Under the pieces are notes generated by a model. It had not been told where the DNA came from. It ran no database searches and saw only the letters and a list, made by a program, of their open reading frames with translations. Below are positions 25,901 through 64,000 of a stretch of DNA of 64,000 nt, one piece after another. The translations under genes and the position numbers were made by a program. This stretch comes from an uncultured virus (IMG/VR IMGVR_UViG_3300017971_000268) (lineage: Duplodnaviria > Heunggongvirae > Uroviricota > Caudoviricetes), in IMG/VR virus record IMGVR_UViG_3300017971_000268; one strand, given 5' to 3'. Position 1 is the first letter of the stretch; the number at the start of each line of letters is the position of its first letter.

Positions 25901-28722
25901 ATGAAAAAGGCGAATTGAAAATATCAAAAGTTACGAATGTTTTTAATAATGGCATTCAAGATTGTATTAAATTAAAATGGCAAAGTAGTGGTTCTGGAGA
26001 TATTGGAGAATTAGTATTAACACCAAATCATTTAGTAAAACACAAATATAAAGGGTGGATTCGTGCTGATTCATTAAATCGATATGATAAGATTTTTCAT
26101 TTAAGAAAGTCCTTACAGAAAAATGGTAGAATTAGATTATATGGGACTAACAAGTTTATGAAATTTGAGGAGCAAGTTATAAAGGAAGAATATTTTAAAG
26201 CTCCATCTAGTTTATTAATTCATCATAAAGATGAAAATCCGTCAAATAATAAAATTTCAAATTTTGAAATTTTATCTAATTCAAAACATTCAAAATTACA
26301 CTCTATAAAATTGGTAAAAGAGGGAAGAATTAAATGGGATCATTTAGATAAGTATAGAGATAAGATAAAACGAAGAACTGGTAAAAACCATTATTATTGG
26401 AAAGAATTTAATAAAGAAGATCTTATCCAAATGTTAGAAAATGCTAATGGAGTGATATCTAATTTAAAGATTGACAAAGAAACATTTAGAAATAAATGCA
26501 AATTAGTTGGTTTTGATTATAAAAAATATAAATATTTTTATTCTAAAAAAGTTGGATATCTTGATGAGAAAAAAATTGTTAATGTTTTATATAAATTTGA
26601 AAAAGAATCCAATTCATTTGATAAATGTGCAAGGTACTTAGGAATAGGTAGATCTAAACTTAAAGAGTTATGTGACTATTACGGTATTTCTACAAATCAT
26701 ATGATTTTATCTGTAACACCTTTTGGAAAATGCAAAGTATATGATCTAGAAGTAGAAGAACACCACAATTTCATTGCTAATGAAATTTGTGTTCATAATT
26801 GTCTTTCCCCACCTATTCAAACCATCCCTAGAAAGAACAAGATTAGAAACATGATTGTTCCCAGAGATGGAGGAAAGCTTGTTGTTGCAGACTTATCTCA
26901 AATAGAATTAAGAATCTTGGCAATGATTAGTGGTGATCAAAGAATGATAAACGCTTTTGAAAGTGGTGTTGATTTTCATACTGCAACAGCTTGCAGTATG
27001 TTTAGAATAAATCCTAATGAATTTGATAAAAATAATTCTAAACATAATGAATTTAGAAGTGTTGCAAAATGTGTTCATCCATCATCTTTAATTATTTATA
27101 ATCTTGAAATAAAAAGAATGTGTGATATTGTTAAGAATAGTAAAGAAGATTCTTTTGAAAAAATACAAGGACATATTTGGAACGGTAAAAATATTGTTGA
27201 TTTAAAAAACACATATAAATCTAACAAAGGTAAGAGAATATTAATTTCTGCTCACAAGTCTATTTTAGTGTGTTCTGAAAATCATCAAGTACAGTTAAAA
27301 GATGGTTCGTTAAAAAAGGCAAAAGATATTAAAGAGAAAGATGTTTTATGTGATGTATCCTTTCCTGATTTAGTGTCAATGCCACAAAGTATTAAGATAA
27401 ATCCTTTTAATGGAGAAGATGAACAAGGATTAACATTATGGTTAGATGAAAAATGGGCATATTTAGCTGGCGTATATACAGGAGATGGGTGCTATGCTGA
27501 AAAACATATTAGTATTTCTACTGGAAGTGAAAGCAAACACGAAGATTGGAAGGATGTTTTAATAAAAGCTTTTGATGATGTCGGAATTTATGCTAAAAAA
27601 AGAGATTCTCATTTTGATAAAAAAAGAAATAGAAATAGTAAAAGTAGTTCTGTGTACGTTGGTTCAACTAGAACAAGAAGATTTTTTGATAAACTTGAAC
27701 TGACAAAAGAGGGTGAAGGAAAAACATTAAGAGTTCCTCTGTGGGTGTTAAATAATTATGATAATTGTTGGGCATTCCTTGGTGGATTATTGGATACTGA
27801 TGGAACAGTTACAACTGATCCATTAAGTAGAACATTGTCTATTACAACAAAGTCTTGGGAGTTAATGCAGGATTTAACAGTATTGTTAAACAGATTAGGA
27901 ATTGAATACGGAATAGAAAATACTTTCAATAAAACATATAAAAGATATTATTTTAGAGTGCAGATTTATGCACGAAATACTGAAGAGATTTTTAATAGAA
28001 AGATAATGCGTTGTCCATACAAAGTTGAAAGATTAAAGAAAAAAGTAGAGACCCTTAAAAACAGAAGAAGATCTAACCATAACAAAGATAATTTTGTTAA
28101 AAGAATTGAAGTATTAGATGAGGGAGATTTATTTGATATTGAAGTTGATTCTAAAGATCATCTTTATTGGGTAAATGGTATAGTAACTCACAACACAATA
28201 AACTTCGGAATAGCTTACGGAAGAGGTGCTTATTCTATCGTTGTTGAGTTAAGAGACTTCTATGGTATTGATATTACTCAAGATGAGGCAAGTAACTTTA
28301 TTAACACTTTTTATGGGACGTATAAAGATGTTAAAAGATGGATGATAGAGACAGTTAATTTTGCAAGAACTTATGGATATGTTGAAACAATTTATGGTAG
28401 AAAGAGATTTTTACCTATGATACATAGTTCTAATACAGAAGATAAAGCGAAAGCAGAGAGACAGGCAGTTAATACTATGATTCAATCTTCTGCATCAGAC
28501 GTGAACAACATTGCACTTATTAGAATAGGGAAATGGTTGGACGATAGCAATAAAAAATCTATGCTAATCGGATGTGTTCACGATAGTATTTTAGTAGATA
28601 GCCCAGAGGATGAGGTTGAAGAAGTTTCTGAAAAACTTGTGGAGTGTATGACTAAAGATGTACCACGAATAACTATTCCGCTTAAAGCGGATTTAGATAT
28701 ATTAGACAAATGGGAGAAATGA
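22939..28722 (+). CDS. polA: family-4 UDG fused to family A DNA polymerase, three inteins; spliced product about 860 aa
   Basis: UDG: GEAPG, TNAVK|CRP, TYHPAY; exonuclease: IDLET, NFTFD, YSAMDAD; polymerase: TGRLS, ADLSQIELR, AK|TINFGIAYG, VHDSI. Confidence 0.95.
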   Translation: MQVEEIRAIPQGIRTRPQMLDKVFDNKFCKKCKLYQCAKNPYIEGRGNKNAKLLIIGEAPGKNEDEMGQVFVGSSGKTLQERLNRYDIDYYITNAVKCLDGKSLVKTKEGNKRINWIVKNKWDGEVLSINKDGEFVWKNIYGWHRSLINNRDIYKISIIDGKNNPNGKPNILVTEDHIIITERGEVLAKDLVSGKDKIATGTPYFGGHRSEQLIIGSLMGDAFVSNRNYLEERHSLKQREYLLLKTKLLEYWKPSISKGTIRNNKKSYSYIGYRISSTLFFKQLRKQFYKNGKKIFPEHYVNRLNIFGLAIIFMDDGYGRYYDNNKHSRSEDTFQVEIALGKIDEKSAKNIVNRFKELGYDVYVTNKDIYRLRFKYKKAYKFLKDIAKYVPHSMRYKLPESLRDYPFMESAYKPEKTKTYYSEINVSKVDYSKLSNSKSVYCIDVKDTHNFVTPSGVVHNCRPTDAQSKNRTPRPVEIKCCLPFTMKIIEEIKPKVILTLGRIPMSQILGLNLSMKIMRGHTYYHPELNVTIIPTYHPAYLGRVNDALYYKQFENDLLIANNLAYAPAKRILPPSPISMKDPIEIKEYLESLLNVDAIAIDLETSGTDHINDKITDISFCAKAGEGVHISWDDIIPHFELLSEVMMSDAVKVGQNFTFDIKFLRMAGVDVNNYSFDTLLAEHMLTMSYEKKEVSGLYKLKNMAWKGTPMGGYEEVLGSGGIKKAVKKKEKKKDEDVFQGNLFENPNEKKNEELEKFANVIDVIRKKKLEDSGLEPLEYYSAMDADVTFRLFQRQKPLIDKDFSFPFYEIVMPLSWTLMRVEENGIRLNSDYMNSIKIDNLENMERCKQELFNLAGKEFNLNSTDDLKDLIFNKLKITPSDEFKTKPSKTYPDGQYSTDEKAIAYYSSKNPALNFLIEYRKLYKENSTYIDGFKKFMQEDTWRVHPNYLQHSTATGRLSCISEGTKITMVGEERNIENVKVGDLVYCYDEKGELKISKVTNVFNNGIQDCIKLKWQSSGSGDIGELVLTPNHLVKHKYKGWIRADSLNRYDKIFHLRKSLQKNGRIRLYGTNKFMKFEEQVIKEEYFKAPSSLLIHHKDENPSNNKISNFEILSNSKHSKLHSIKLVKEGRIKWDHLDKYRDKIKRRTGKNHYYWKEFNKEDLIQMLENANGVISNLKIDKETFRNKCKLVGFDYKKYKYFYSKKVGYLDEKKIVNVLYKFEKESNSFDKCARYLGIGRSKLKELCDYYGISTNHMILSVTPFGKCKVYDLEVEEHHNFIANEICVHNCLSPPIQTIPRKNKIRNMIVPRDGGKLVVADLSQIELRILAMISGDQRMINAFESGVDFHTATACSMFRINPNEFDKNNSKHNEFRSVAKCVHPSSLIIYNLEIKRMCDIVKNSKEDSFEKIQGHIWNGKNIVDLKNTYKSNKGKRILISAHKSILVCSENHQVQLKDGSLKKAKDIKEKDVLCDVSFPDLVSMPQSIKINPFNGEDEQGLTLWLDEKWAYLAGVYTGDGCYAEKHISISTGSESKHEDWKDVLIKAFDDVGIYAKKRDSHFDKKRNRNSKSSSVYVGSTRTRRFFDKLELTKEGEGKTLRVPLWVLNNYDNCWAFLGGLLDTDGTVTTDPLSRTLSITTKSWELMQDLTVLLNRLGIEYGIENTFNKTYKRYYFRVQIYARNTEEIFNRKIMRCPYKVERLKKKVETLKNRRRSNHNKDNFVKRIEVLDEGDLFDIEVDSKDHLYWVNGIVTHNTINFGIAYGRGAYSIVVELRDFYGIDITQDEASNFINTFYGTYKDVKRWMIETVNFARTYGYVETIYGRKRFLPMIHSSNTEDKAKAERQAVNTMIQSSASDVNNIALIRIGKWLDDSNKKSMLIGCVHDSILVDSPEDEVEEVSEKLVECMTKDVPRITIPLKADLDILDKWEK
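23230..24318 (+). mobile_element. intein in the UDG domain (LAGLIDADG, 363 aa)
   Basis: K|CLDGKS...VVHN|CRP; GSLMGDA and IFMDDG. Confidence 0.9.
25813..26799 (+). mobile_element. PolA intein (HNH type, 329 aa)
   Basis: S|CISEGT...CVHN|C; IHHKDENPSNNKISNF. Confidence 0.9.
27070..28194 (+). mobile_element. PolA motif-B intein (LAGLIDADG, 375 aa)
   Basis: K|CVHPSS...VTHN|T; VYTGDG and LLDTDG. Confidence 0.9.
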
Positions 28723-31666: not shown

Positions 31667-32368
31667 ATGGCTAAATGTCCAGAATGTAATGGATCAGGTT
31701 TCATACTAAAGAAAGATAAATACGATGAAGATGTTTGGTCTCCTTGTGAATGCAGAAAGAAAAGAGAAGCAGAAGTTTCTACAGAGATTAAATTTACAGA
31801 GGCTAACATTAGAAAATCATTACGAAGATATACTTTTGAAGACTACCTTAAATACCCGTTTAAAAGAAAAGACAAATTACATAACGCCCCACAAATAAAA
31901 GAATTTCAAAATTATTTAGAGAATCCTTCTGATTTTCTTGATAATTATTCTGTGTTATGGATTTGGGGAACTGATGCTAATGCTGGTCACACAACCCTAG
32001 CATCAATTTTAGGCATTAAATTACTTGAGTTTGGATATAAAGTTAGATTTTTGGAGATACAACACTTGATAGAAGCCTTTACAAAGTTTGATGAAAAAGA
32101 AGTATTTTTTACAGAACTTAAAAAATTTGATATTTATATTATTAATGATGCGTTTGATGTTGATAGGGGTCATGTCGGAGGAAAATATTCTCAGGTTCAT
32201 TTATACCAATTTATTAATGATGCATTAATTGATGGAAAACATTTTATAATGACATCAAACAGGTTAGTTCGTGACATAGACAAAGGTGATTTAAAAGATT
32301 TCGAACAATCGAAAATAATAATATCAAGGTCAGTCAAACAATTAGAGTTTAGAGGTTCTATAGATTGA
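31667..32368 (+). CDS. DnaC/IstB-like helicase loader with degenerate P-loop
   Basis: CPECNGSG...PCEC, YTFEDY, WGTDANAGHTT, IYIINDA, MTSN. Confidence 0.7.
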   Translation: MAKCPECNGSGFILKKDKYDEDVWSPCECRKKREAEVSTEIKFTEANIRKSLRRYTFEDYLKYPFKRKDKLHNAPQIKEFQNYLENPSDFLDNYSVLWIWGTDANAGHTTLASILGIKLLEFGYKVRFLEIQHLIEAFTKFDEKEVFFTELKKFDIYIINDAFDVDRGHVGGKYSQVHLYQFINDALIDGKHFIMTSNRLVRDIDKGDLKDFEQSKIIISRSVKQLEFRGSID

Positions 32369-32685
32369 GTAAAAAAAGGAAGGGAGAAGACAGTAATTTT
32401 GAAAAATCTGTAGATGGATTATCAGCAGAAACTATAGCAACATTAAGATGGAAAGCAAATGAGTTAGGCTGTAGTGTTGGTGAACTCGTGGCAGAAATAT
32501 TTTTCGGTTACATTTGTGAAATGGAAGAAGCAATGTTAAGATTTTTTAAAAGGGCTTTAGAACAAAAATATAAAGAAAGTGATATTAAAGATGTTGCAAT
32601 GTTTACTTTTGGAGCAGACAAGGAAGATGTTGAATTTTTGTTTATGAAAGCTAAAAAAGAAGAATCTAAAAAAAAGAAAAAGTAG
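32365..32685 (+). CDS. RHH/Arc-like protein
   Basis: SVDGLSAETIATLRWKANELGCSVGELVAEI. Confidence 0.5.
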   Translation: MSKKRKGEDSNFEKSVDGLSAETIATLRWKANELGCSVGELVAEIFFGYICEMEEAMLRFFKRALEQKYKESDIKDVAMFTFGADKEDVEFLFMKAKKEESKKKKK

Positions 32686-32916
32686 GTGGTAGTTATGGCT
32701 TATGCGTGTAGTATGAGAGTCGCAGGCATAGAGTTCGATATTTATAATGGGGAAAGAGTAAGTCCTACTTTAACAAAGTGGGATTATTACGTAACCCCAA
32801 GATTGGCTATGCAAATTGACAAGTGGCGCATACAGAATTCTGTTGATAAAATATCTACAAAAGAGCAGATGGAGTTTTTAATCAGTCAAGGCTTTATAAA
32901 AAAATATAGTGAATAA
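32686..32916 (+). CDS. hypothetical protein
   Basis: ORF in operon. Confidence 0.55.
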   Translation: MVVMAYACSMRVAGIEFDIYNGERVSPTLTKWDYYVTPRLAMQIDKWRIQNSVDKISTKEQMEFLISQGFIKKYSE

Positions 32917-32932
32917 GTAGGAGATTCATGTA

Positions 32933-35467
32933 ATGGCGAATCCTTTAAAAGATATCGGAGGAATACCTGTAAATGAAGATAATGAAGCTTTAATCATTAC
33001 CAATGCTATTAAGAACAAAAAGAACAGAGAAATATTTGTTCGACACATTGATTATAGGTTATTCAGAAGAAAAGAATTTCAAACAATGGCGTTTGCTATT
33101 CAAGCTATTGAAACCTCAAATATGGAAATGAATACTGATGCTATTATTTTGAAATCTAAAACTTGTCCTATTAAAAAAATAGTTGATTTTGAATTTATAG
33201 AAACACTTAAAGAAAATTTTCCTGAAGTGCCGGAGTCAAATTTTATAGAACATCTTGTAACACTTCGTACTGATAGTGTCAAAGCTCAAGCATTTGATTT
33301 GGTTCATAAGTCTCTTATTAGATCCTTTATGAATCCTCAAGCTGGAATAAAGGATCTCGAAGTTAGGGTACAGGCATTACAAGATTTAATAACATCTGGA
33401 TACTCTTCAACAGAATGCCAGTTTCTTACTATGAAAGAGGCTGTAGCTGAATATGTATATGATAAAGAGCATGGGGTAAGGAGTAGAACTACTGGTTTCA
33501 GACAATTAGACGAAAAACTTATTCAAGGCTTGAAAGAGGAATGGATTTCAATTATTGCAGGTCTGGCGAACATGGGGAAGACACATACTTTAAACACTCC
33601 TATAATAATGTATGATGGGAGTATTAAAATGATTCAAGATATTGAAGTTGGGGATTTGTTGATGGGCGTTGATTCTCTGCCTAGAAAAGTTACTCGAACA
33701 TGGACGGGTGTAGATGATATTTATACAATAAATCAATGTAAAGGGGATGCATATGAAGTAACTGGTCAACATTTATTATCTTTAAAAAGAAGTTATAATC
33801 AATATTATAAACCAGATAAAAAATTACCTATCAATGAAAGAAGAATAACTCATCCAAAAGGAGAAGTTTTAAATATATCTGTATTAGATTATTTAAAAAA
33901 AGGGAACGGGTGGAAGACTATGTGGAAAGGTTACAAATCAGAGGGATGGGAAATGCCTGAAAGAAAAGTTGAATTGTCTCCTTATTTTTTAGGAATCTGG
34001 TTATCTGATGGAAATAATGATAGTCAATTAATTACAAATCCTGACATTGAAGTTAGAAAATTTTTAAAAGATTATGCTTCATCTTTTAATATGTATTATA
34101 CCGAAAGACAAAAAAAAGATTCTGATTGTTATACTTGTGTTATAAAAAAACGTGGTGAAAATAAAAATATTATAAAAGATTATCTCGAAGATTATAATTT
34201 ATTTAAAAATAAACACATTCCTGATGATTTTAAATATACTTCACGCAAGAAAAGAATGGAACTTTTAAGTGGTTTATTAGATGGTGATGGTTATTTAACA
34301 TACGTAACCTATGAAATTTCAACAAAATATGAACAATTAAAAGATGACATCTTATATTTAGCAAGAAGTTTGGGTTTTTATTCAGTAGCTAAATATGAAA
34401 AAAAGAAAATCAAATCAATTGGTTTTGAGGGTAAATATTGGCGTATAAGAATAGTAGGAGATACGTACCTAATACCGTGTAAAGTTAAAAGAAAAAAAGC
34501 AAAAAAAATAAAAAGGAGAAAAAACTTTTTATTTACAGGATTTAATGTAAAATACAAAGGAAAAGACAAGTTTTATAGTATTTCTCTGGAAGATACTACG
34601 GATCAATTGTATTTATTAGGAGATGGAACTGTAACCCATAATTCTTCCTTTGCTTTGTCTATGATGAATAATTTATCAAACAAAGGAGTTCCTTCCGCAA
34701 ATTTTGCATTAGAGATGCCTAATCAATCTATTATAACAAAGTTACTTGCTTTTAATACAAATCTTACTATTAGAAAGGTAGCTATTGAATGGGATAATTT
34801 AGATGTTATAGAAAAGAAAGTCTATGAACATGAACTTGAAAGACTTGCAAGAAATCAATACATATATTTGAATGATAAACCATCACAAGGATTGTCAGAT
34901 ATTAAAGAACAGACTATGTTACTTCAAGATAAAATAGCAACTGTTGATAAATCTTTTGATGGATATATTGTAATATTAATAGACTTGTTTGGGAAAATAA
35001 AAGAATTTCTTGGAAGTGATAACTTTGCTAGAGATTATGAGCAAAGATGTAATGAAGTTCAGGCTATGACACGGGAACTTGGTGTACATATGTGTTTAGT
35101 AGCACAAATAGTTAGATCAGTAATGCAACGTAAATTTAAACGACCTTCTCTAGCTGATATTAAAAATGCTGGTGCATTAGGAGAGATTGCTGATTTAATT
35201 TTTGGTATTCACCGCCCAAATTATGACCCCGAAGTAGCACTCAAAAGTCAATTAGCATACGGACAAGGTAATGAAGAAATTGAACCAAATCCTGATGAGA
35301 ATTTAGCAGAGATATTAATACTTAAAGGTAGAATGGCACAAGCCAATCAACTTGTAAACTTTTATTTTGATCCTAATACAACACGGTTTAGTCCTATTGA
35401 GGAAGATTATCAGAATGAGCTAAACGCAACTAAATTCGATGATGATGATTGGGATAATCAATTTTGA
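32933..35467 (+). CDS. dnaB: replicative DnaB helicase with intein; spliced product about 490 aa
   Basis: TGFRQLD, AGLANMGK|S, FALEMP, VAQI, RPSLADIKNAGALGEIADLI. Confidence 0.92.
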   Translation: MANPLKDIGGIPVNEDNEALIITNAIKNKKNREIFVRHIDYRLFRRKEFQTMAFAIQAIETSNMEMNTDAIILKSKTCPIKKIVDFEFIETLKENFPEVPESNFIEHLVTLRTDSVKAQAFDLVHKSLIRSFMNPQAGIKDLEVRVQALQDLITSGYSSTECQFLTMKEAVAEYVYDKEHGVRSRTTGFRQLDEKLIQGLKEEWISIIAGLANMGKTHTLNTPIIMYDGSIKMIQDIEVGDLLMGVDSLPRKVTRTWTGVDDIYTINQCKGDAYEVTGQHLLSLKRSYNQYYKPDKKLPINERRITHPKGEVLNISVLDYLKKGNGWKTMWKGYKSEGWEMPERKVELSPYFLGIWLSDGNNDSQLITNPDIEVRKFLKDYASSFNMYYTERQKKDSDCYTCVIKKRGENKNIIKDYLEDYNLFKNKHIPDDFKYTSRKKRMELLSGLLDGDGYLTYVTYEISTKYEQLKDDILYLARSLGFYSVAKYEKKKIKSIGFEGKYWRIRIVGDTYLIPCKVKRKKAKKIKRRKNFLFTGFNVKYKGKDKFYSISLEDTTDQLYLLGDGTVTHNSSFALSMMNNLSNKGVPSANFALEMPNQSIITKLLAFNTNLTIRKVAIEWDNLDVIEKKVYEHELERLARNQYIYLNDKPSQGLSDIKEQTMLLQDKIATVDKSFDGYIVILIDLFGKIKEFLGSDNFARDYEQRCNEVQAMTRELGVHMCLVAQIVRSVMQRKFKRPSLADIKNAGALGEIADLIFGIHRPNYDPEVALKSQLAYGQGNEEIEPNPDENLAEILILKGRMAQANQLVNFYFDPNTTRFSPIEEDYQNELNATKFDDDDWDNQF
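33581..34642 (+). mobile_element. DnaB Walker-A intein (LAGLIDADG, 354 aa, begins with Thr)
   Basis: GK|THTLNTPIIMYDG...VTHN|S; WLSDG and LLDGDG. Confidence 0.88.
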
Positions 35468-36429
35468 TTAATGTATCTGACATATTAGATGATATCGGAT
35501 TAGATTATAGAGAAGTTGGAAAAAGCTTTAGAGTTAAGTGTTGGCATCACGATGAAGGTGTCCCGTCAATGTTTATTAATAAAGAATCTGGAGTGTATCA
35601 TTGCTTTAGCTGTCATAGTTCTGGAAACATATTTCAACTTATTACAGAACATCTTGGATTAACTGGATTCGATTTAGTAAAATACTTAGCTGACTTCTCT
35701 ATTAACTTGACAGAGGAAGAAATATATAATAGATTAAAAAATCACATAGGATCTAGAAAACCAAAAGAAGTAAAACAAGTACGAAAGCTTATAAGAATAC
35801 CAGAATACAAAACCATAGAAAATAATGATTATCTTGAAAATAGAGGAATAACTAAAGAAGAAATAAAACAATGGGAAATGGGGGTTGTTTCTGGCAATCA
35901 AACACACAAAGAATTCTTACCTTATAGAAATTGGATTTATATTCCTATAATTCAAAATGGTGTTTTTGAAAATTATTTCTTGAGAAGTCCTTTTAACAAT
36001 AGAAAGATATATGGTAAATTTCCTAGAAAAAATCTTTTATTTGGATTAGATAGTTGTACAGATTACAGTAAAACTATTTATGTAGTAGAGGGTATCTTTG
36101 ATATGATTTTTTTGAGAAAGATAAGAGTTCAAGTTGTTGCAGCTCTTTCTAACAGGTTGCATAAAGAACAATTAGAACTCCTTAAAAAATATAAAAGAGT
36201 AGTACTCGTGCCAGATGCGGACAGCCCTGGATTTGAGTTAGTTAAAACAGCTTTACCTTTAATATATAGTACTAGTCTCGGAGTATGTTCTATCCCTAAT
36301 GGTAAGAAAGATACTGCTGATTGTACTATAGATGAATTAATAGAAATGACTTATAATGAAAAAAGTATTTTAGATTTTATTTTTAATGAGAGGTTAGATT
36401 ATGGAAATGCGAGACACCAGTTCTTCTAA
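35464..36429 (+). CDS. dnaG: DNA primase (Zn finger + TOPRIM)
   Basis: CWHH...CFSC; VVEGIFD; PDADSPG. Confidence 0.9.
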   Translation: MINVSDILDDIGLDYREVGKSFRVKCWHHDEGVPSMFINKESGVYHCFSCHSSGNIFQLITEHLGLTGFDLVKYLADFSINLTEEEIYNRLKNHIGSRKPKEVKQVRKLIRIPEYKTIENNDYLENRGITKEEIKQWEMGVVSGNQTHKEFLPYRNWIYIPIIQNGVFENYFLRSPFNNRKIYGKFPRKNLLFGLDSCTDYSKTIYVVEGIFDMIFLRKIRVQVVAALSNRLHKEQLELLKKYKRVVLVPDADSPGFELVKTALPLIYSTSLGVCSIPNGKKDTADCTIDELIEMTYNEKSILDFIFNERLDYGNARHQFF

Positions 36430-36613: not shown

Positions 36614-36620
36614 AAAATTG

Positions 36621-36666
36621 TTGACTATTAATAGGGTTTTGTATACATTAGATATGTGTATACATT
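36621..36666 (+). promoter_or_regulatory. promoter with tandem TGTATACATT operator-like repeats
   Basis: TTGACT-N17-TACATT; TGTATACATT at 36640 and 36657. Confidence 0.7.
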
Positions 36667-36697
36667 CATTTAAATTGTTTATAAGGAGATTATAGAA

Positions 36698-36868
36698 ATG
36701 ATTAGAAAACAATTCTATTTTACTGAAAGTGAGGATAAGGCTGTTAAAAAAGTTGCGAAAGAAAGCGGGCTTCCAGCAGCAGAAATAATAAGGAGGTTTA
36801 TAGATTATTGTTTAAATCAAGAGAATTTAGATAATATTATATATAAAACGAGGAAAAACAAGAAATGA
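36698..36868 (+). CDS. CopG-like RHH protein, 56 aa (not in ORF track)
   Basis: MIRKQFYFTESEDKAVKKVAKESGLPAAEIIRRFIDYCL; AAGGAG RBS; ATGA coupling. Confidence 0.8.
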   Translation: MIRKQFYFTESEDKAVKKVAKESGLPAAEIIRRFIDYCLNQENLDNIIYKTRKNKK

Positions 36869-37293
36869 AAGTAATTGTAAATGTGGATGGTATTTTACCA
36901 GTATTAGATGATATGATAATAAAGGGTTTGGAACAAGAGGGTTATCCCACTTGTTTAGGGAATATGATACCCCCATTATTAATGAGAAAAATTGAGGTAG
37001 ATGAAGAAAAAGTACTAAAAGTAAAAGGGCTTACTCCTACAACTGAAATTGTTTTGGAAGATGTCTCGCAAGTTGTGGAAAGTAATGTTGATATTGTAAA
37101 TAATAGGGTTATGACTCAAGAAGGAATTGACTATATTAATGAGTATAAAACAAATAGGGCAGAAATGTATGTAAAGCAGTTAGTTAAGTGTATTAGTTGT
37201 GAATATGTTGATACGTGTTATAAACTAACCACAACTTATTTAACACTCATAAGTATAGAAGAAAAAGCAAAGGAGACTAATTCGACATGTTAG
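36865..37293 (+). CDS. hypothetical protein in the tubulin operon
   Basis: CISCEYVDTC motif; overlaps genes on both sides. Confidence 0.7.
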   Translation: MKVIVNVDGILPVLDDMIIKGLEQEGYPTCLGNMIPPLLMRKIEVDEEKVLKVKGLTPTTEIVLEDVSQVVESNVDIVNNRVMTQEGIDYINEYKTNRAEMYVKQLVKCISCEYVDTCYKLTTTYLTLISIEEKAKETNSTC

Positions 37294-38366
37294 GAAAAAC
37301 AGTACAGATTATAGGAGTGGGTCAATGTGGGTGTAGGCTTGGTATGACTTTTGAAAAACAAGGAATACCAGCACTTTACATTAATTCAGATGAAGTTGAT
37401 TTTAGGGATTTTAATGCGAGACCAGATCAAACTCTCTTGATAGAAGGTTCTGGTACTGGGGGATCTCCTTCAAAAGGAGCTGAATTATTTAGAAAGCACA
37501 AGAGTTCTATTATTAGTTTTTTAAGAGAACGTTTAGATAAAAATAAAATAATATGGGTATTGTGGGGAAGTGGAGGAGGTACTGGAAATTCAATAGGACC
37601 TCTTTTATTAGAGTATTTATCTGAACATAAATATGTTACTGGATGTATTACAACTTTACCGCCTAAGATGTTAGATATTCTGGCAACTGATAATGCTATG
37701 AAGACTTTGAAAAAGTTGAAAGATGTTAATACGAGAATGACTGTACTCGCAGACAATGAATACCTTGTAAATAAGATTGGTGTTGGTGGTGATTGGTGGA
37801 AGAAAGTTAACAGCCATATCTGTTCTACAATTCTTTCTGCCTTTGATTTGTTAAGAGAAGGGAAGACTACTCAAAGTGGGCTAGGTTCTATTGATAAGGG
37901 TGAGATAATGAGGATTATGCAATATGGAAACGGTTTAACAGATGTTAGAGTTGTATATCTTTCTCCTTATGATTTTGATTTAGAGAATAAAGATTTGTTA
38001 AAGAAATTACTTGAGCCTTCTCTTATTGAAGGTTATAACTATAAAAATACATTAGCTTATCTTGTAGGAATAGATTTGCCAAGGCAAGGAAATTACACAG
38101 AGATTTCAAAGAAGATATTTGATAGTACAAGAGCGAGCTTTGGAAATGCTATATCACGATTAGGCATGTTCGTTGATCCTTTTCTTAATGATGTTATAAG
38201 AGTAACAATGATTAATGCTGGATTGAAACTACCTAAATCTTTAAAGGTAAAGATGAATAATTTAAAGAGGGATGAGGCTAGATTTATTGAGAAAAGAAAT
38301 AGAGAAGAAACTATGGACTTCTCTGAATTAGAAGAAGGTGTTTTAGAAGAAGACTTTCAATTGTAA
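37287..38366 (+). CDS. tubulin/FtsZ-family GTPase (TubZ/PhuZ-like)
   Basis: IGVGQCG, INS, GSGTGG, GSGGGTGN signature, DNE, IDKGE T7 loop, acidic tail. Confidence 0.9.
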   Translation: MLGKTVQIIGVGQCGCRLGMTFEKQGIPALYINSDEVDFRDFNARPDQTLLIEGSGTGGSPSKGAELFRKHKSSIISFLRERLDKNKIIWVLWGSGGGTGNSIGPLLLEYLSEHKYVTGCITTLPPKMLDILATDNAMKTLKKLKDVNTRMTVLADNEYLVNKIGVGGDWWKKVNSHICSTILSAFDLLREGKTTQSGLGSIDKGEIMRIMQYGNGLTDVRVVYLSPYDFDLENKDLLKKLLEPSLIEGYNYKNTLAYLVGIDLPRQGNYTEISKKIFDSTRASFGNAISRLGMFVDPFLNDVIRVTMINAGLKLPKSLKVKMNNLKRDEARFIEKRNREETMDFSELEEGVLEEDFQL

Positions 38367-38369
38367 GAG

Positions 38370-38798
38370 GTGAATATGGATTTAAATATAACTCAAGTTT
38401 GTAATACTGTTCAATATTTTGAAAAGCCTGTTAAAACTAATTACTCGACAAGAGAGGGAGGCTTTCCTACAGACACATTTAAAATTAGCCAGACGTACGT
38501 TGATTTTATTATAGAGATATCTGGTCTTACGATGATGACAATGACACGCAATTGTGATTATGATATTTTTAGAGATATGATATTACATGCACTTCCTCCT
38601 AGATTTAGAAATGCTGATTTGGAGATTATAGAGTTAATGAATCATCCGATGGAACACGCAACAAAATTTGGTATTGTAATAAAAGGGTACAACGGAAATG
38701 TTTATACTCCGTCAGAAACAAAGCGGTGGATTTATTGTCCGAGTTGTGGAGTACCATTGAAAAACCATAGTTGTGAATACTGTGGATTACAATTATAA
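38370..38798 (+). CDS. hypothetical protein with C-terminal zinc ribbon
   Basis: CPSCG...CEYCG. Confidence 0.65.
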   Translation: MNMDLNITQVCNTVQYFEKPVKTNYSTREGGFPTDTFKISQTYVDFIIEISGLTMMTMTRNCDYDIFRDMILHALPPRFRNADLEIIELMNHPMEHATKFGIVIKGYNGNVYTPSETKRWIYCPSCGVPLKNHSCEYCGLQL

Positions 38799-38808
38799 GG
38801 AGAAAAAA

Positions 38809-38979
38809 ATGACTAAACTTATTAGATGTAAAGAATGTGGAGAAACTTTTGAACCAATTATTGTTGATGATAAGGTTCACAATAAAGGAATCAAACAAGA
38901 TTGTCCTAATTGTGGAGAAGTAAATTTATTTAAACCCTCTGAAGTTGATGGTAAGGGTGATGACGTATTAGGAAAATGA
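38809..38979 (+). CDS. zinc-ribbon protein
   Basis: IRCKECG...CPNCG; AAGGAG RBS. Confidence 0.65.
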   Translation: MTKLIRCKECGETFEPIIVDDKVHNKGIKQDCPNCGEVNLFKPSEVDGKGDDVLGK

Positions 38980-42424: not shown

Positions 42425-45400
42425 ATGGGAATAGGTGATAAACTATTAGATAAAAATTACGAACCTTCCTCACAACCAACAAACAGAATAGAATCTCCAT
42501 TTTTTAAGAAGATTATAAAATGTCCGGTAAATTTTACTGAGGATATTATTGAGTATGTTGAATCTCCAGAATTTTTAGGTATGACTTTACGCCCACTTCA
42601 GAGAAAATTTCTTGAAGAGCTTTTTTATGTTAATCCAGATGGTTCATATAAATATGAACAAGGAGTTATGTGTTGTGGAATGAGGGGTGGTAAATCGCAC
42701 TCTATAAAAGAGCAAATTTTAATGTATGATGGAACATTAAAAGAGATTGGGAAAATACAGATTGGTGATATTGTAATGGGACCAGATTCTACTCCAAGAA
42801 AGGTTCTTAATACCTCACGAGGAGAATCTGAAATGTTTGAGATAAAACAATCATGTGCTGATACATATATTATAAATGATGCACACATTCTTTCTTTAAA
42901 GAAAGCTCAGTCTGTAAACTGTTCTCTTGGAAAAAACAGGAAGTCAAATGTTAGATACGGTAATGAACCAGATATAGTCAACATTCCTATAAAAGAATAT
43001 TTAAAGAAATCTAAAAAATGGAAATATTTCTTTAGAGGATATAAAGCAGGATTGATTAAATTCGAGGAACAACCTATCTCTATTGATCCTTATTTGGTTG
43101 GACAGTGGTTAGCAGACGGTCATGCTACTGAGTTAAGAATTACAAAAACCGATGCTGATTTAAAAGAATGGATTTATAAATTTGCTAAAGAAAATGATTT
43201 GATTGTAAAAGAATACCAAAAAAAGAATACAATTGCTAAAGATTTTTATTTTGATAAATCTAATGGTAACTCGAATAAAATATGGAATGAATTTAAAAAA
43301 TTAAATCTTCCAGATAATAAACATATCCCGCAATGCTATATTAGTAATAGCAAAGAAATAAGATTAGAATTGCTTGCTGCTTTAATTGATGGAGATGGTC
43401 ATCATAGATTAAATAGACATGGATATGATATTGCATTTTCTAATGAGACATTGGCAATGGATACCAAAAGATTAGCAGATACCCTTGGATATAGAACTCA
43501 TATTCAAAAAAAGAAAACATCTTGTAAAAATAAAGAAACTGGTTATAATTTTGAAGGGGAAGCTTGGAGACTTTCCATCTATGGCAATGTATGGGAAATA
43601 CCTTGTAAGGTTAAAAGAAAACAATATGTTCATAATGGTAAACGTACTAACAAAGAAGAGGGTTTATCATCATTAAAAGTCACCTCTATTGGTTGGGGTA
43701 AATATGCTGGAATAGGTGTTGATGGAGATAACCTGTATTGCCTTGCAGACGGAACGGTTACACATAATTCTTGGACTGCTGCTTTCATAACAACCTTTAT
43801 GACTCAACTAATGTTGAAGTACGATAATCCGGCACAAGAGTTTGGACAAGCCCCTGGTACTCGTATTACCGGACAGATTATAGCATCTTCAGAAGTACAA
43901 GCGAAAGAGACAGCTTATGCGGCAGTTGAGTCCATTCTTGATTATGGTCATTGGTGGCAGAAATATATTGCGTATTTAAAAGAGAGAGAAGAAACTGAAG
44001 GAAAACATACATTATATCAAGAATTAAAATTAGCTAGAGAATTTCCAGAAAAGAATGTTGCTGTACTTTCTCTTCACAGTAACTCTGCTGCCCTTGCTGG
44101 TAAGACAAGTTATTGTGTTGTTCTTGATGAATTAAGTCGATTTGATGTGGCAGATGGGATGGTGCAATCTAGAACACAAAAATCAACAGCAAACGCTGTT
44201 TATGATACGGTTGCTAGAGCGTGCTCAAGTCTTAAACAGATAAGCAAGGTCGTCACGATATCGAGTCCTATGTATGAGGACGATTACACAATGAGATTAT
44301 TGTGTATGGCAAAGGATTGTTGGGTAGGAGAAATGTCTCCTATTATTGATGCTTTGAGAAACAAAACTGTAACCAAAGTTCCTACCCTATATGGTATGCA
44401 CGCCACAACCTTTGAGTTAAACCCAAAAACAGAAGAAAATCCTGGAGGTTTTGTTAGAGGGGAAGATTTTGAATCAGCAAGACTACAGAATCCCGAAGCC
44501 TACAATCGTGACTACCTTGCTTGTCCGCCTTCTACTGTTAATCCGTTCTTCGAGTTTCCAGAAAAAATTGATAGAGTTGTTATAGATAGGGAAAAGAAAG
44601 TTGCCTTTTCTGATAAGATGATAGAGGAATCTATTCAAACAGCAAATGGGATTGAGATGCGAATGTATATTGGTAAGAATATAATGCCTCTTAAACCTGA
44701 TAAAATGAATAAGTATTATATTTGTGTTGACCAGGGCGAAAAGCGTGACCACTTTGCTTTGGCAATGGGGCATGTTGAATCTATGCCTATTGATGTTACT
44801 AACGATAAAGGTGATATCGAAAAAGCGAGTAGATTAAAGATAATAATAGATTTTGTTACTGGTTGGATTCCAGATAAACAGAATAGAATAACAGTTTCAT
44901 TTGCAAATGTGGAGGAAGTAATTAAAGTATTATGTCAGAGTTTCCATGTTGGCGTGGTCACTTATGACCAATGGTCTAGTGCAGAATCAATACAAAGATT
45001 ATTTTCCGAAGGTGTTAATACACAACAATTAGGTGCTACATTATCAATGTACGAAACATTTAAACAATTAATTTATCAAGGTCAATTAGAACTTCCTAAA
45101 CATGAGATACTTTTAAAAGAATTAAAACAGTTAACATTAATAAAAGGTAAGAAACTCGATCACCCATCTTCTGGAAGTAAAGACTATTCTGATGCTGTCT
45201 GTCGAGTATGTTGGTTATGTTATGAAGATTATATTATGGAGACTGTTCATGGGCAGCATATGTTACCTTATAAACAAAATCTTCCAACACTACGTTCGGT
45301 TGCATCTGCTTATGAGATTATGAGACAAAACGATATGAATCCTCATGGAGCTATTTGGAATCAATCTCAAAGTGGTCAAGGAGTTTTTGGTGATACTTTT

Positions 45401-45442
45401 ATTGTAAGAACTAATGTGATTCCTAATATTAAAGGTAATTAG
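42425..45442 (+). CDS. terL: terminase large subunit with intein; spliced product about 647 aa
   Basis: LRPLQ, GMRGGK|S, VLDELSRF, ISSP, ICVDQG..D, TYDQWSS, DHPSSGSKDYSDAV. Confidence 0.9.
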   Translation: MGIGDKLLDKNYEPSSQPTNRIESPFFKKIIKCPVNFTEDIIEYVESPEFLGMTLRPLQRKFLEELFYVNPDGSYKYEQGVMCCGMRGGKSHSIKEQILMYDGTLKEIGKIQIGDIVMGPDSTPRKVLNTSRGESEMFEIKQSCADTYIINDAHILSLKKAQSVNCSLGKNRKSNVRYGNEPDIVNIPIKEYLKKSKKWKYFFRGYKAGLIKFEEQPISIDPYLVGQWLADGHATELRITKTDADLKEWIYKFAKENDLIVKEYQKKNTIAKDFYFDKSNGNSNKIWNEFKKLNLPDNKHIPQCYISNSKEIRLELLAALIDGDGHHRLNRHGYDIAFSNETLAMDTKRLADTLGYRTHIQKKKTSCKNKETGYNFEGEAWRLSIYGNVWEIPCKVKRKQYVHNGKRTNKEEGLSSLKVTSIGWGKYAGIGVDGDNLYCLADGTVTHNSWTAAFITTFMTQLMLKYDNPAQEFGQAPGTRITGQIIASSEVQAKETAYAAVESILDYGHWWQKYIAYLKEREETEGKHTLYQELKLAREFPEKNVAVLSLHSNSAALAGKTSYCVVLDELSRFDVADGMVQSRTQKSTANAVYDTVARACSSLKQISKVVTISSPMYEDDYTMRLLCMAKDCWVGEMSPIIDALRNKTVTKVPTLYGMHATTFELNPKTEENPGGFVRGEDFESARLQNPEAYNRDYLACPPSTVNPFFEFPEKIDRVVIDREKKVAFSDKMIEESIQTANGIEMRMYIGKNIMPLKPDKMNKYYICVDQGEKRDHFALAMGHVESMPIDVTNDKGDIEKASRLKIIIDFVTGWIPDKQNRITVSFANVEEVIKVLCQSFHVGVVTYDQWSSAESIQRLFSEGVNTQQLGATLSMYETFKQLIYQGQLELPKHEILLKELKQLTLIKGKKLDHPSSGSKDYSDAVCRVCWLCYEDYIMETVHGQHMLPYKQNLPTLRSVASAYEIMRQNDMNPHGAIWNQSQSGQGVFGDTFIVRTNVIPNIKGN
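42695..43768 (+). mobile_element. TerL Walker-A intein (LAGLIDADG, 358 aa, Ser1)
   Basis: GK|SHSIKEQILMYDG...VTHN|S; WLADG and LIDGDG. Confidence 0.9.
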
Positions 45443-58277: not shown

Positions 58278-58285
58278 TCTATTAT

Positions 58286-58314
58286 AATATAACTAAATTT
58301 CCCTTTTTTGTCAA
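58286..58314 (-). promoter_or_regulatory. sigma70-like promoter
   Basis: TTGACA-N17-TATATT on - strand. Confidence 0.7.
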
Positions 58315-59987: not shown

Positions 59988-59993
59988 ATCTAT

Positions 59994-60046
59994 ACCTCCT
60001 TGAAATATTATTTGTTCTGGTTTTATTTAAAAAACATTTAACGCTC
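59994..60046 (-). repeat. 53-bp 5' leader repeat, copy 1
   Basis: 35 of the first 38 nt identical to 63123-63175. Confidence 0.8.
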
Positions 60047-60525: not shown

Positions 60526-60840
60526 TTACCTCCTCTTTTTATAAATCTTTTCTAAAGTATCTAATAAGTTGTCTGATAAATTAAATAATAACCTATAGCT
60601 AATTTTAACTTTCCCACTCTCTATATTAGATATATATTGCTGTGTACAACCCATTTTATCCGCAAGTTCTTTTTGAGTTAATCTACATAACATCCTTATG
60701 TATATAATGGTATCACCATCAAACATTTTAACTGAATCTATTGCTTTTTTTATTTCCCCTAAATCGTTCACTATCTTTAGCATACTCTCTATGTGATATC
60801 CCATACCTTTACCTCCATCTATAGCTTTAATTTGTTCCAT
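60526..60840 (-). CDS. XRE-family HTH protein
   Basis: LTQKELADKMGCTQQYISNIESGK. Confidence 0.85.
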   Translation of the reverse strand: MEQIKAIDGGKGMGYHIESMLKIVNDLGEIKKAIDSVKMFDGDTIIYIRMLCRLTQKELADKMGCTQQYISNIESGKVKISYRLLFNLSDNLLDTLEKIYKKRR

Positions 60841-61301
60841 TGTATAGAATTATTATCTATACTTATTTCAAACACACCTATCATATTACACTTTTTACAC
60901 ATCACCTCTATACTAGCCTTACTTTCACTTTTAGATAGTTTAGTTAAATGTTTACACGCTTTTATACTATTTTTATCTAGTATATGGTCGCAATTTATTT
61001 TATTATTAACATCCTTAACAATGTCTAATAAACTAATCAAAACCTTTATAGAAGCCTTTTCTCTACCAGACTCTATATGACTTAGATATTGTTGAGTTAT
61101 TCCAAGAGCTTTGGCAAACTCAATTTGAGTCATTCTAACAAAACTTCTTATTCTTTTAAAAGTCATACCTCCAAAATCCTCTATTATATTAACAGACTCC
61201 TCAACAGTCCTTAACTCCTTTTCCCATAATAAAAACATTTTCTTTCTATTTCTACGATTTCTGTCTACCATACCTTTGAAAACCCTTCGTTTCTCGACCA
61301 T
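60819..61301 (-). CDS. XRE-family HTH protein
   Basis: MTQIEFAKALGITQQYLSHIESGR. Confidence 0.85.
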   Translation of the reverse strand: MVEKRRVFKGMVDRNRRNRKKMFLLWEKELRTVEESVNIIEDFGGMTFKRIRSFVRMTQIEFAKALGITQQYLSHIESGREKASIKVLISLLDIVKDVNNKINCDHILDKNSIKACKHLTKLSKSESKASIEVMCKKCNMIGVFEISIDNNSIQWNKLKL

Positions 61302-62130: not shown

Positions 62131-63117
62131 TTACTCGCCTAATATTTTAACATCAACATCTTTGTTATCACCAATGATTGATTTAACCAGAGCAGTCATG
62201 TTCTGACCAATTCTGATTGCATCTTCTGGGTTTGCCAGACCAAACCCTTCACCATTGAAACCATCCATCATGGTATCAGGAGTCATCTCATACTTAGCAA
62301 ATCTGGTAATGTTAAGTTGATCTGTTCTTGTCAAAAGTAAGGGGTCATAGCCAGGTGGATTCATAATGTTATGGATACAAAAGTATGGATTTCTTTTGTT
62401 ATTCTTCATGAAGATAGGTCGTATTCTTTCCAACACTATCTTGAGATCATGAAGTTTCTCGTCAAGATATTTAAGCATACTCTCACCATAGTTATTACCA
62501 AATTTTAAGTCTTGTGCTATGTCCTTATCCAATCCTTTTAACTCTTTCAGCTTACGCAGAAAGTGTGGCTTACTAAGAAGTGTCATCCCAGCATATCGAA
62601 AGATGTCTTCTTTAATATCATGTAGGTCTGGGAGTGCTTTACCATTTCTTATTATCAAATTGCAAAGAAGAAATCTGCCCTCATCACTAACAGTAATATC
62701 AGCTTTAGGTATGGCTTTTGATATGTCTATCAGTGCCAATATGACAAGCAAACTATTGTACTCATTGCCCTGTACCTTACAGAAGGCACGTGCTTGTTTT
62801 TTAGGATTATCATTACGAAATGATATGTATCCAGCCTTTTTGAGTTCTCTGCATGTCTTGGCATGATCTCTGTTTTTGGCAAAGATTTCTGAATATCTTT
62901 TGCCTACTATCTCCCATGCCTTGTCCCTATATTTATTTATTAATGGGTTATCCCATTTAGGATAATAACTATAAGGATCAAGCCAGAAGTTTTCACATGA
63001 CCATACATCTTTAAACTTACCGCTGTTGTAATGTAGAGTGATCTCATACATCTTATTGATTTGAGAATCTGTAAATGGTTTATCAGGCGTAACCGTAAAG
63101 TGTAATGTTCTACCCAT
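62131..63117 (-). CDS. hypothetical protein (start MGRTLHF)
   Basis: AGGAGG RBS before ATG 63117; FCKVQGNE, VSDEG. Confidence 0.75.
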   Translation of the reverse strand: MGRTLHFTVTPDKPFTDSQINKMYEITLHYNSGKFKDVWSCENFWLDPYSYYPKWDNPLINKYRDKAWEIVGKRYSEIFAKNRDHAKTCRELKKAGYISFRNDNPKKQARAFCKVQGNEYNSLLVILALIDISKAIPKADITVSDEGRFLLCNLIIRNGKALPDLHDIKEDIFRYAGMTLLSKPHFLRKLKELKGLDKDIAQDLKFGNNYGESMLKYLDEKLHDLKIVLERIRPIFMKNNKRNPYFCIHNIMNPPGYDPLLLTRTDQLNITRFAKYEMTPDTMMDGFNGEGFGLANPEDAIRIGQNMTALVKSIIGDNKDVDVKILGE

Positions 63118-63122
63118 AATTA

Positions 63123-63175
63123 ACCTCCTTGAAATATTACCTGTTTTGGTTTTATTTAAATACACATTAAAGCTC
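63123..63175 (-). repeat. 53-bp 5' leader repeat, copy 2
   Basis: See copy 1. Confidence 0.8.
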
Positions 63176-63215
63176 TGAAACTTTTATCTACCTATAGTAT
63201 CGACACCTCTACCAT

Positions 63216-63255
63216 TTTACTTTAGTACTTTTTTGTTTACTTTAATACTTTTTTG
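63216..63255. repeat. 2 x 20-bp AT-rich direct repeat
   Basis: TTTACTTTAGTACTTTTTTG / TTTACTTTAATACTTTTTTG. Confidence 0.8.
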
Positions 63256-63332
63256 TGACCAACAATATATTTATATAAACATAAAACTACTATGTGTACA
63301 TAACCCCTATTTTTGACATTTGCGAATAACGA

Positions 63333-63387
63333 CGCCTAAACCTTCGCCTAAACCTTCGCCTAAACCTTCGCCTAAACCTTCGCCTAA
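63333..63387. repeat. 12-bp tandem repeat, about 4.5 copies
   Basis: (CGCCTAAACCTT)4 CGCCTAA. Confidence 0.95.
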
Positions 63388-63499
63388 GATTGGCGGAAAA
63401 ATGTGCGGAAGTGGCCAAATTTCCGTGCCAAAAAATTTTTTTCACAGTTGCGACTACCGACCTCATTGCCGAATAACGACCGCAAAAGTTTTTGCTGAA

Positions 63500-63527
63500 G
63501 TCTTTGCCCAAAATTTTGGGCAAAGAC
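63500..63527. repeat. perfect 28-bp palindrome
   Basis: GTCTTTGCCCAAAA|TTTTGGGCAAAGAC. Confidence 0.95.
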
Positions 63528-63797
63528 ATTTGCGACTAACTACCCTAAATTAAACAACTACTTTTGCGACTAACTATCCTTTTGCGACTAACTATCGCCA
63601 AGATTTTGGCGAAGGTCCTTTGCTGAAGTTTGGTTAGGTCGTTAGTCGCTGTTGTGTCGTTACTCGAAATATTTACAATGCCGACTAACTACCTCATTAG
63701 CGACTAACTACCTAGCACCAAATTGACTGCTGTTATTTTACATTTGCGACTAACTACCACATTTGCGACTAACTACCACATTTGCGACTAACTACCA
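63527..63797. repeat. iteron-like array of GCGACTAACTA
   Basis: Exact copies at 63532, 63566, 63584, 63700, 63746, 63765, 63784; (CATTTGCGACTAACTACCA)3 at 63741-63797. Confidence 0.92.
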
Positions 63798-64000
63798 AAC
63801 ATGAAAAAAACAGAACAGGTTTTTGATTTCTTAGGTGTTTTATTGTTTGGGCGTGCCTCTTGCCCCGATTCGCACCCTCGTTATAGCTGCAAAACTATTG
63901 ACTAATATGTATATATAGGAGTGTATCCTTTTATATACAGAATATTATTTAAATCCTGAAACTCTATTGAGAACAATTTCAGAGCTTAAATAGGCTTCTG

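Follow-up and report, generated by a model that had tools for sequence, protein, structure and literature searches.

Iteron-type replication origins such as lambda ori, P1 oriR/incA and the origins of phages from lactic acid bacteria are non-coding loci, present once in the genome, in which tandem groups of directional repeats of about 19 bp adjoin an easily melted AT-rich tract and are accompanied by further palindromes. In many plasmids, the register of the iterons is roughly 22 bp. Contiguous 12-bp units recall TubR-type arrays, and pairs or triples of directional repeats around palindromes recall attP arm-type sites. In the sections of PMC6009700 that deal with these systems, the tubC site of the c-st prophage spans about 350-500 bp, is non-coding and abounds in direct and inverted repeats, with two types of iterons in split blocks, and the tubC sites described all consist of split groups of direct repeats and lie directly upstream of tubR. 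The untranslated repeat regions of phage T5, as presented in the part of 10.1101/866236 devoted to them, are intricate and combine nine copies of the direct repeat DRD, palindromes and related blocks located kilobases apart. Here, we analysed a repeat block at positions 63216-63800 of a 64,000-nucleotide stretch of DNA (hereafter the window) from an uncultured virus (IMG/VR record IMGVR_UViG_3300017971_000268). An earlier note had proposed that this block is an origin, a packaging or terminus site, or a tubulin centromere. Our analysis indicates that it is a genuine internal non-coding array for several putative DNA-binding proteins. It is most likely the assembly site of a nucleoprotein complex, and we tentatively interpret it as an iteron-type replication origin or a replication-control locus.

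Repeat organization of the block

The repeat block was found to be non-coding, as reported in the earlier note, and the elements listed for it are in place. Its main component is a family of directional repeats of 16-19 bp, the A-type iterons. Their core, GCGACTAACTA, is present in seven exact copies and two copies with one mismatch, one of which is inverted (63639-63649). All nine matches of the window lie within 63532-63794, for a chance expectation of 0.35, and none of 100 shuffles reached nine. With the 16-mer consensus TTTGCGACTAACTACC and up to four mismatches, all 12 matches of the window fall within 63319-63796, 11 of them in direct orientation; 30 shuffles of the whole window, used as a control, gave a mean of 4.7 matches per 64 kb. 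From left to right, these iterons are arranged as a single variant copy (TTTGCGAATAACGACG, 63319-63334), a pair of variants 19 bp apart (GTTGCGACTACCGACC and TTGCCGAATAACGACC, 63447-63481), a single consensus copy (63529-63544), a pair 18 bp apart (63563-63596), the sole inverted copy (GCGACTAACGACC on the minus strand, 63637-63652), a pair 19 bp apart (63678-63712) and three exact copies 19 bp apart (63743-63796), all but the inverted one being on the plus strand. Tandem Repeats Finder (TRF) detected an 18-bp unit repeated twice at 63561-63596 and a 19-bp unit, ACATTTGCGACTAACTACC, repeated 3.1 times at 63740-63797. The final group of three is identical in an independent contig (L102, see below).

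Other families of motifs are interleaved with the iterons. The 12-bp B-type unit CGCCTAAACCTT forms a tandem on the plus strand at 63333-63387 (TRF, 100% match), with 4.6 copies (4.5 in the earlier note), a number given by the window's own assembly alone. Its last unit runs into the first of three dyads, and the unit recurs once, inverted and with one mismatch (TTTGGCGAAGGT, 63605-63616), where it overlaps the third. These dyads had been described as repeats of GCC.A..ATT..GGC. This literal pattern has no match, but the looser GCC[ACT]A.{2,6}T[AGT]GGC has three in the window, at 63382, 63506 and 63597, all of them in the block. Dyad 1 is GCCTAAGATTGGC (63382-63394), dyad 2 is the core of a perfect 28-bp palindrome, GTCTTTGCCCAAAATTTTGGGCAAAGAC (63500-63527), and dyad 3 is GCCAAGATTTTGGC (63597-63616). 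The sequence TTTGCTGAAGT precedes the palindrome at 63491 and is found again at 63619. At the left end of the block, an AT-rich 20-bp doublet, TTTACTTTA(G/A)TACTTTTTTG, occupies 63212-63255 (TRF, 63216-63256, 95% match). Its 22-nt form, CATTTTACTTTAGTACTTTTTT (63212-63233), reads TAAAAT on its minus strand.

The block is GC-richer than its flanks, as had been noticed previously, with 42.3% in 63321-63800 versus 25.6% in 63118-63320 and 34.0% in 63801-64000, the overall GC content being about 31%. The AT-rich tract at 63220-63299 is predicted to melt easily: the duplex energy of its 40-bp stretches is -40.3 to -42.9 kcal/mol versus a window mean of -46.6 (standard deviation 3.3), which places it, by nearest-neighbour energy and on a composition basis only, within the weakest 1-5% of the 40-bp stretches of the window. 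None of the motifs of the block was found in the other 154 kb of the virus record (G000, see below). At least three unrelated families of motifs, unique in the genome, are thus interleaved in about 480 non-coding bases, which supports the 'multi-protein cis site' suggested in the earlier note.

The block has no coding capacity. A 79-aa frame of the minus strand (63290-63529), in which the 12-bp array reads as RRRF x4 and which is not preceded by a ribosome-binding site, was judged to be a spurious gene. An imperfect 23-nt inverted repeat (63166-63188 and 63969-63991, 83%, with an 11-nt exact core) flanks the whole block, at about chance level by our estimate, and a MITE-like element was set aside on this ground.

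Position of the block in the phage genome

Positions 1-63375 of the window correspond to the terminal part (G000:C1:154329-217703) of a virus record of 217,703 bp, classed as linear and 88% complete; the final 625 bases of the window are absent from this record. The record ends at 63375, inside the 12-bp tandem, and other contigs break there too. This end is an assembly break and not a physical end. The assembly artefact envisaged in the earlier note is not the case, the block being reproduced by other contigs. A separate metagenome contig of 17,201 nt (L102) matches the window letter for letter over 63448-64000; its coordinates indicate that it starts in the 12-bp tandem and reaches about 16.5 kb past the window. 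Furthermore, a 412-nt contig found in each of two runs covers 63358-63769 with zero differences, and low-depth pieces from a third run, belonging to another study, show no differing letters. In the first two runs, which contain 99% of the words sampled and may be the source samples, the contigs break at the 12-bp and 19-bp tandems, as expected for a 31-mer graph. One contig per run, of 9,474 and 10,820 nt, respectively, extends from 63768 through 64000 and then for at least 9.2 kb more. The depth of neighbouring contigs is similar (25.6 versus 31.2, and 24.3 versus 28.3) and no joints were seen. Since independent contigs cross the block and run for at least 9.2-16.5 kb beyond the window, the block is internal and does not mark a genome end. 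Moreover, the 328-aa protein encoded next to it is also recorded on a contig of 234,748 nt.

Pfam and PHROG scans of the open reading frames (ORFs) of the window and of the record reveal a jumbo phage, whose genome is likely to be about 235 kb. Its intein-laden replication module encodes a ribonucleotide reductase, a DNA polymerase (DNA_pol_A), a clamp, a RecA/UvsX-like protein and, at 31667-36429 of the window, a DnaC-like loader, a DnaB-like helicase and a primase. The phage also encodes a sigma factor, a tubulin (37287-38363) and an intein-bearing large terminase (42425-45442). A minus-strand arm (45.4-63.2 kb) carries about 30 small genes, including two that encode XRE-type helix-turn-helix (HTH) proteins (60526-61301). 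The block, which had been placed at the head of this early-gene arm, lies inside it, between a minus-strand terminator and the next gene, whose ATG is at 63117. No close cultured phage was found: the tubulin has no match in the phage collection and the best cultured-phage matches of the helicase, with 25-28% identity, are T5-like.

A putative replication origin

The organization of the block suggests, on sequence grounds, that it may be an iteron-type replication origin or a replication-control locus, and this is the function that we tentatively favour. Origins of this type are characterized by at least three direct units of 17-22 bp in register and by an adjacent AT-rich unwinding element; a cognate initiator, usually of the winged-helix type, is expected to be encoded beside the iterons, and a switch in strand composition to occur at the site. 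The block has 12 such units, with groups at 18-19 bp and a 19-bp unit present 3.1 times, and the tract at 63220-63299 could, on a composition basis only, be the unwinding element. The confinement of all 12 iterons of the window to 480 bp, with 11 in the same orientation, their uniqueness in the genome, the low-stability tract that directly abuts them and the presence of the phage's own replisome genes (DnaB_C, DnaC-like loader, primase, DNA_pol_A and clamp) are all consistent with such a function. So are the Pfam scans of 65 + 89 + 90 ORFs, in which no Rep or DnaA family was detected, no initiator or origin having been recognised elsewhere. A phage-encoded sequence-specific protein would bind the 12 mostly head-to-tail A-type iterons, organized in singles, pairs and a triple in an 18-19-bp register, while the three dyads and the B-type array would be occupied by one or two further proteins. 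Once loaded, the array would destabilise the adjoining AT-rich tract, where the DnaC-like loader, the DnaB-like helicase and the primase of the phage would enter. A second copy of CATTTTACTTTAGTACTTTTTT is located about 4.07 kb past the window end, in the same orientation and followed by a sequence with GACTAACT and CGAGTAAC. Since CATTTTACTTTAGTACTTTTTT recurs there with iteron-like neighbours, a second related block exists about 4 kb on. It would be an auxiliary or control site, acting via the pairing of iteron-bound proteins.

Comparison with relatives indicates that repeat-rich regions are not restricted to this phage. A complete relative of 252,876 bp (G001) is syntenic with and inverted against the record. 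Its homologue of the 328-aa protein (63% identical) lies in a co-directional gene run with no repeat block upstream. However, about 19-24 kb upstream in the same arm, next to a divergent point (92.3-92.8 kb), a poorly coding 5-kb region (94.3-99.5 kb) carries various repeats, including a 21-bp unit present 2.8 times and the palindrome TAACTATGGATCCATAGTTA in six copies. No motif of this region resembles those of the window, and we count its richness in repeats as support for an origin. In a 41.7-kb contig (L159), a gene-free block of 390 bp (8837-9223) is located 0.8 kb upstream of the 328-aa homologue. It includes a cluster of four DnaA-box-like sites detected by scan, two of them perfect and abutting (TTATCCACA), or five in the same orientation by eye, followed by about 60 bp of nearly pure A+T. 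This block, which also counts in favour of an origin, is organized like an origin that depends on DnaA or like the DnaA-box sites of T5. Like the block of the window, it is gene-free and lies in the same co-directional arm of small genes, upstream of the 328-aa homologue; unlike it, it is simpler (about 390 bp) and has host-type DnaA boxes instead of phage-specific iterons. The comparison of these two relatives with the window indicates that the arm repeatedly carries cis blocks rich in repeats throughout the lineage, but that their motifs and positions are lineage-specific. In a 291-kb relative (L158), no gene-free gap of more than about 280 bp was found in the 10 kb upstream of the homologue.

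Several observations weigh against an origin. No initiator was found beside the block, for which the left neighbour was analysed: this 328-aa protein has no winged-helix Rep match in either of two fold searches and, in G001 and L158, the genes of its homologues are not preceded by such a block. DnaA boxes are not enriched around the block, with six sites (up to two mismatches) in 883 bp versus five per kb over the window, and none with fewer than two mismatches in 63118-64000; GATC sites are absent from the block. Furthermore, the 18-19-bp register of the iterons is below the plasmid value given above. In G001, the regression of third-position GC skew on gene orientation with a two-breakpoint strand term placed the switches at about 210 kb, which is the divergent region on the ParB side, and about 50 kb, and not at the analogous 92-99 kb (residual sum of squares from 581 to 464); the same fit gave no clear answer for G000. 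Since transcription dominates skew in phages, this result argues only weakly against the presence of a main bidirectional origin at the corresponding location. The block also differs from described iteron origins by the lack of a recognised adjacent initiator gene, of DnaA boxes and of GATC clusters, by the interleaving of two more motif families and by the second related block about 4 kb away. A cluster of DnaA boxes at 38781-38911 of the window falls within a region that codes for Cys-rich motifs and was not retained.

The proteins that had been suggested as binders of the block received no support. For the winged-HTH ORF at 15148, no Pfam family was matched and the single-sequence model is too poor to be used (predicted local distance difference test, pLDDT, of 36.6), and the zinc-HTH ORF at 2909 only matches Sigma70_r4_2, at E 0.02. 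In the tubulin operon, the two 142-aa ORFs on either side of the tubulin gene match no Pfam family, apart from DZR for one of them (E 0.0023), and no PDB sequence.

Outside these relatives, blastn of 63100-64000 gave no match in phage or plasmid collections, and scans of viral contigs for exact patterns revealed no related block. Another 13 loci are unrelated tandem repeats, none of which has GCGACTAAC, and were rejected. A literature search on the core 9-mer returned only primer coincidences among the matches listed, and one on jumbo-phage iterons and replication origins found nothing related.

Alternative functions

That the block is a physical end, a packaging or injection-stop region as in T5, or an attP site with arm-type repeats appears very unlikely. 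It is similar in intricacy to the untranslated repeat regions of T5 and, like them, has a related repeat block kilobases away, and T5-like phages provide the best cultured matches of the helicase. However, the T5 regions, for the features presented in 10.1101/866236, belong to a long terminal repeat with paired DnaA boxes, whereas the block is internal, shows no doubled depth and has no DnaA boxes of this kind in 63118-64000. The packaging or terminus site of the earlier note is contradicted by the contig that covers 63768-64000 and continues for 9.2 kb or more, by the 17.2-kb contig that spans the block, by a depth of 25-31 on both sides and by the presence of the adjacent protein on the 234,748-nt contig; contigs cannot show read ends, and a permuted end would be compatible with them. 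As for attP, which requires an integrase encoded in the genome, usually next to it, neither a tyrosine integrase (PF00589) nor a serine recombinase (PF00239) was found in either of the two records, G000 and G001, the controls being positive in 14/14 and 12/14 genomes, respectively. The terminus, packaging and attP readings are largely excluded. Partition is another function that we consider unlikely for the block: its arrays would load an adaptor linking a TubZ/RepX-like tubulin filament, or a ParB-type system, with the DNA of the phage, which might exist as a plasmid prophage. The phage does encode a tubulin, whose best solved relative is the RepX/TubZ-type protein of pXO1 (4ei7, E 1.1e-10), and two ParB_N proteins. 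Moreover, the block is built in the same style as the tubC of c-st, within what PMC6009700 describes of it: both are non-coding, with direct and inverted repeats and two kinds of iterons in split blocks, in a genome that encodes a tubulin. By contrast with the tubC sites described in that source, the block (63216-63800) is 25 kb away from the tubulin gene (37287-38363) and precedes the unrelated 328-aa gene, and no TubR-like protein was recognised. Since it is not directly upstream of the tubulin operon, the tubulin centromere proposed previously lacks a defining feature of tubC. In addition, this operon has its own promoter-proximal palindromes, two copies of TGTATACA, before a ribbon-helix-helix (RHH)-like gene. 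The ParB_N genes are about 72 kb away and adjoin their own array of six GTGACAGnnCTGTCAC palindromes, where a parS would be expected; none of the motifs of this array is found in the block, and Pfam scans detected no ParA-type ATPase.

Control of transcription is possible but doubtful: the block would be an operator- or enhancer-like cluster for the transcription unit that starts with the 328-aa gene, with the 22-nt AT-rich motif as a phage-specific promoter element, the dyads as operators for dimeric HTH repressors and the iterons as sites of a co-operative regulator. Its location between a minus-strand terminator and the next minus-strand gene agrees with this function. This intrinsic terminator (about 64039-64086, within the 93 bases of L102 past the window, about 40 nt from the window end) combines a 15-pair hairpin (-29.6 kcal/mol, z -5.8, none of 200 shuffles as good) with TTTCTTT. 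Its presence on the minus strand indicates that a minus-strand gene lies to the right of the block and, since it separates the block from this preceding gene, a promoter must lie in 63118-64040. About 4 kb upstream, the 22-nt motif, whose minus strand reads TAAAAT, occurs again with an unchanged orientation and beside iteron-like sequence, which suggests a repeated promoter-plus-regulator module. The two XRE-type HTH genes are 2 kb downstream and, in the syntenic part of G001, a single 20-bp palindrome scattered in six copies recalls multi-operator control regions. However, sigma-70-type promoter matches are not enriched (three found for 3.2 expected). The only minus-strand candidate upstream of the 328-aa gene, a sigma-70-like match at 63973-63944 (TTCTCA-18-AATAAT, 9/12), is in a second AT-rich, weakly paired tract (63880-63975) just downstream of the terminator, and a canonical promoter, TTGACA-N17-TATATT, is used elsewhere in the arm (about 58278-58314). 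Furthermore, 12 iterons, 4.6 tandem units and three dyads are far beyond the usual needs of an operator, and the motifs were found at no other intergenic region examined in the 218 kb. The arrays are large and unique, which speaks for a role beyond that of an operator; the two functions, origin and promoter, may coexist. Finally, the iteron core may be the site of a DNA-binding protein common in mobile or defence islands of Bacillota, the phage block being a decoy or hijacked site that titrates or exploits this host protein, which seems highly improbable. When one genome per prokaryote species was scanned for two copies of TGCGACTAACT 6-11 nt apart, seven loci were obtained, versus about 0.4 expected by our own estimate, and three of these loci are non-coding arrays with an 11-bp period in Bacillota. 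One, located between HEPN and TIR genes (L160, 6001-6200), consists of 18 tandem units of TTGCGACTAAC or TTGCAACTAAC; the other two, made of TTGCGACTAAC and variants, are just downstream of an AlbA_2/HATPase_c_4 regulator-like gene (L163, 3958-4030, between Eco57I-type methylase and PglZ genes; L166, 5990-6250). In addition, a 1.6-kb metagenome contig (L036) carries 21-bp iterons (three copies of TTGATTTGCGACTAACTCAAYT and variants, 700-1080) that share the 14-mer ATTTGCGACTAACT with the block, together with TTAGGCGAA and a GGCGA...TCGCC dyad (GGCGAAAAATCGCC) like the B-type motifs. They adjoin a gene encoding an EcoRI-type methylase; the short ORF on their other side is presumably HsdR-N-like. 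It is hardly probable that TTGCGACTAAC is the landing site of a protein that also organises the 11-bp arrays of bacteriophage exclusion (BREX), restriction-modification and HEPN/TIR islands, the phage array, together with a second family of sites common to L036, capturing or titrating this host factor at the start of infection as a DNA decoy or hijacked control site instead of serving as a classical origin or centromere. The four remaining loci of the scan are repeats within coding sequence or other coincidences, the period is 18-19 bp in the block but 11 or 21 bp in these arrays, no protein common to these loci and the phage was found and, beyond the selected iteron, L036 and the block share 4-5 9-mers versus 2.2 in shuffles (maximum 12). 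The link with defence islands is statistically thin.

Neighbouring genes and other loci

The 328-aa gene (62131-63117, minus strand) starts with an ATG at 63117, with a ribosome-binding site AAGGAGG 7 nt upstream. Its product matches no Pfam or PHROG family and no PDB sequence (best E 0.72), its Atlas leads are all below 0.9, and none of its 34 homologues has a functional name. Its model (pLDDT 89.9) shows a ferredoxin-like N-terminal part and long helices. Foldseek gave no match at E <= 0.001 and the best VIA-align match has a Z of 6.2, a winged-helix initiator not being among the matches. A leader of about 40 nt, TTTAAATAAAACCA(A/G)AACA..TAATATTTCAAGGAGGT, is common to this gene and another minus-strand gene (63118-63160 and 59988-60030) and constitutes a duplicated translation-start cassette. 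As regards RNA, the sole Rfam match is mir-722 at E 0.6, which is at chance level, and the folding of 63795-64000 is weak, with a z of -2.36 for the minus strand and -1.28 for the plus strand.

The tubulin operon (36614-38798) comprises an 84-bp upstream region with TTGACT and the two TGTATACA palindromes, a 56-aa RHH-like ORF (36698-36868, NikA-like at E 0.0014), a 142-aa ORF, the tubulin gene and a second 142-aa ORF with a hint of a zinc ribbon. The six GTGACAGnnCTGTCAC palindromes form a 23-bp tandem in a divergent intergenic region (G000:C1:145390-145590), followed by an RHH-like ORF (G000:145781) and the two ParB_N genes (G000:145997-148607; 324 and 305 aa); a third RHH-like ORF is at 15899 of the window. 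This region, about 6-9 kb before the window start, is likely to be a parS or an operator with ParB-like proteins (G000:C1:145390-148607).

Inteins or homing-endonuclease domains are present in the ribonucleotide reductase (5435-11245), the DNA polymerase A, which has a fused uracil-DNA glycosylase domain (22939-28722), the DnaB-like helicase (32933-35467) and the large terminase (42425-45442), and more inteins are found elsewhere in the record. The start of the record (G000:C1:195-4854) encodes a Vsr endonuclease, a C-5 cytosine methylase, a HindVP-type restriction endonuclease and two D12-class adenine methylases. Elsewhere, the genome encodes several STAS, response-regulator and PAS proteins.

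Significance of the block

The block belongs to an uncultured lineage of jumbo phages of about 235-250 kb, which carries a TubZ/RepX-like tubulin, two ParB-like proteins, its own replisome and many inteins, and whose origin, centromere and master control site are not yet defined. It is the densest cluster of predicted specific protein-binding motifs in the 218 kb read and therefore an obvious handle for finding the initiator or adaptor proteins of the phage. If its core motif were truly common to the arrays of defence islands, it would point to a DNA-binding factor linking phages and defence loci. If the block is an origin, it would provide a minimal replicon for a lineage without any cultured member.

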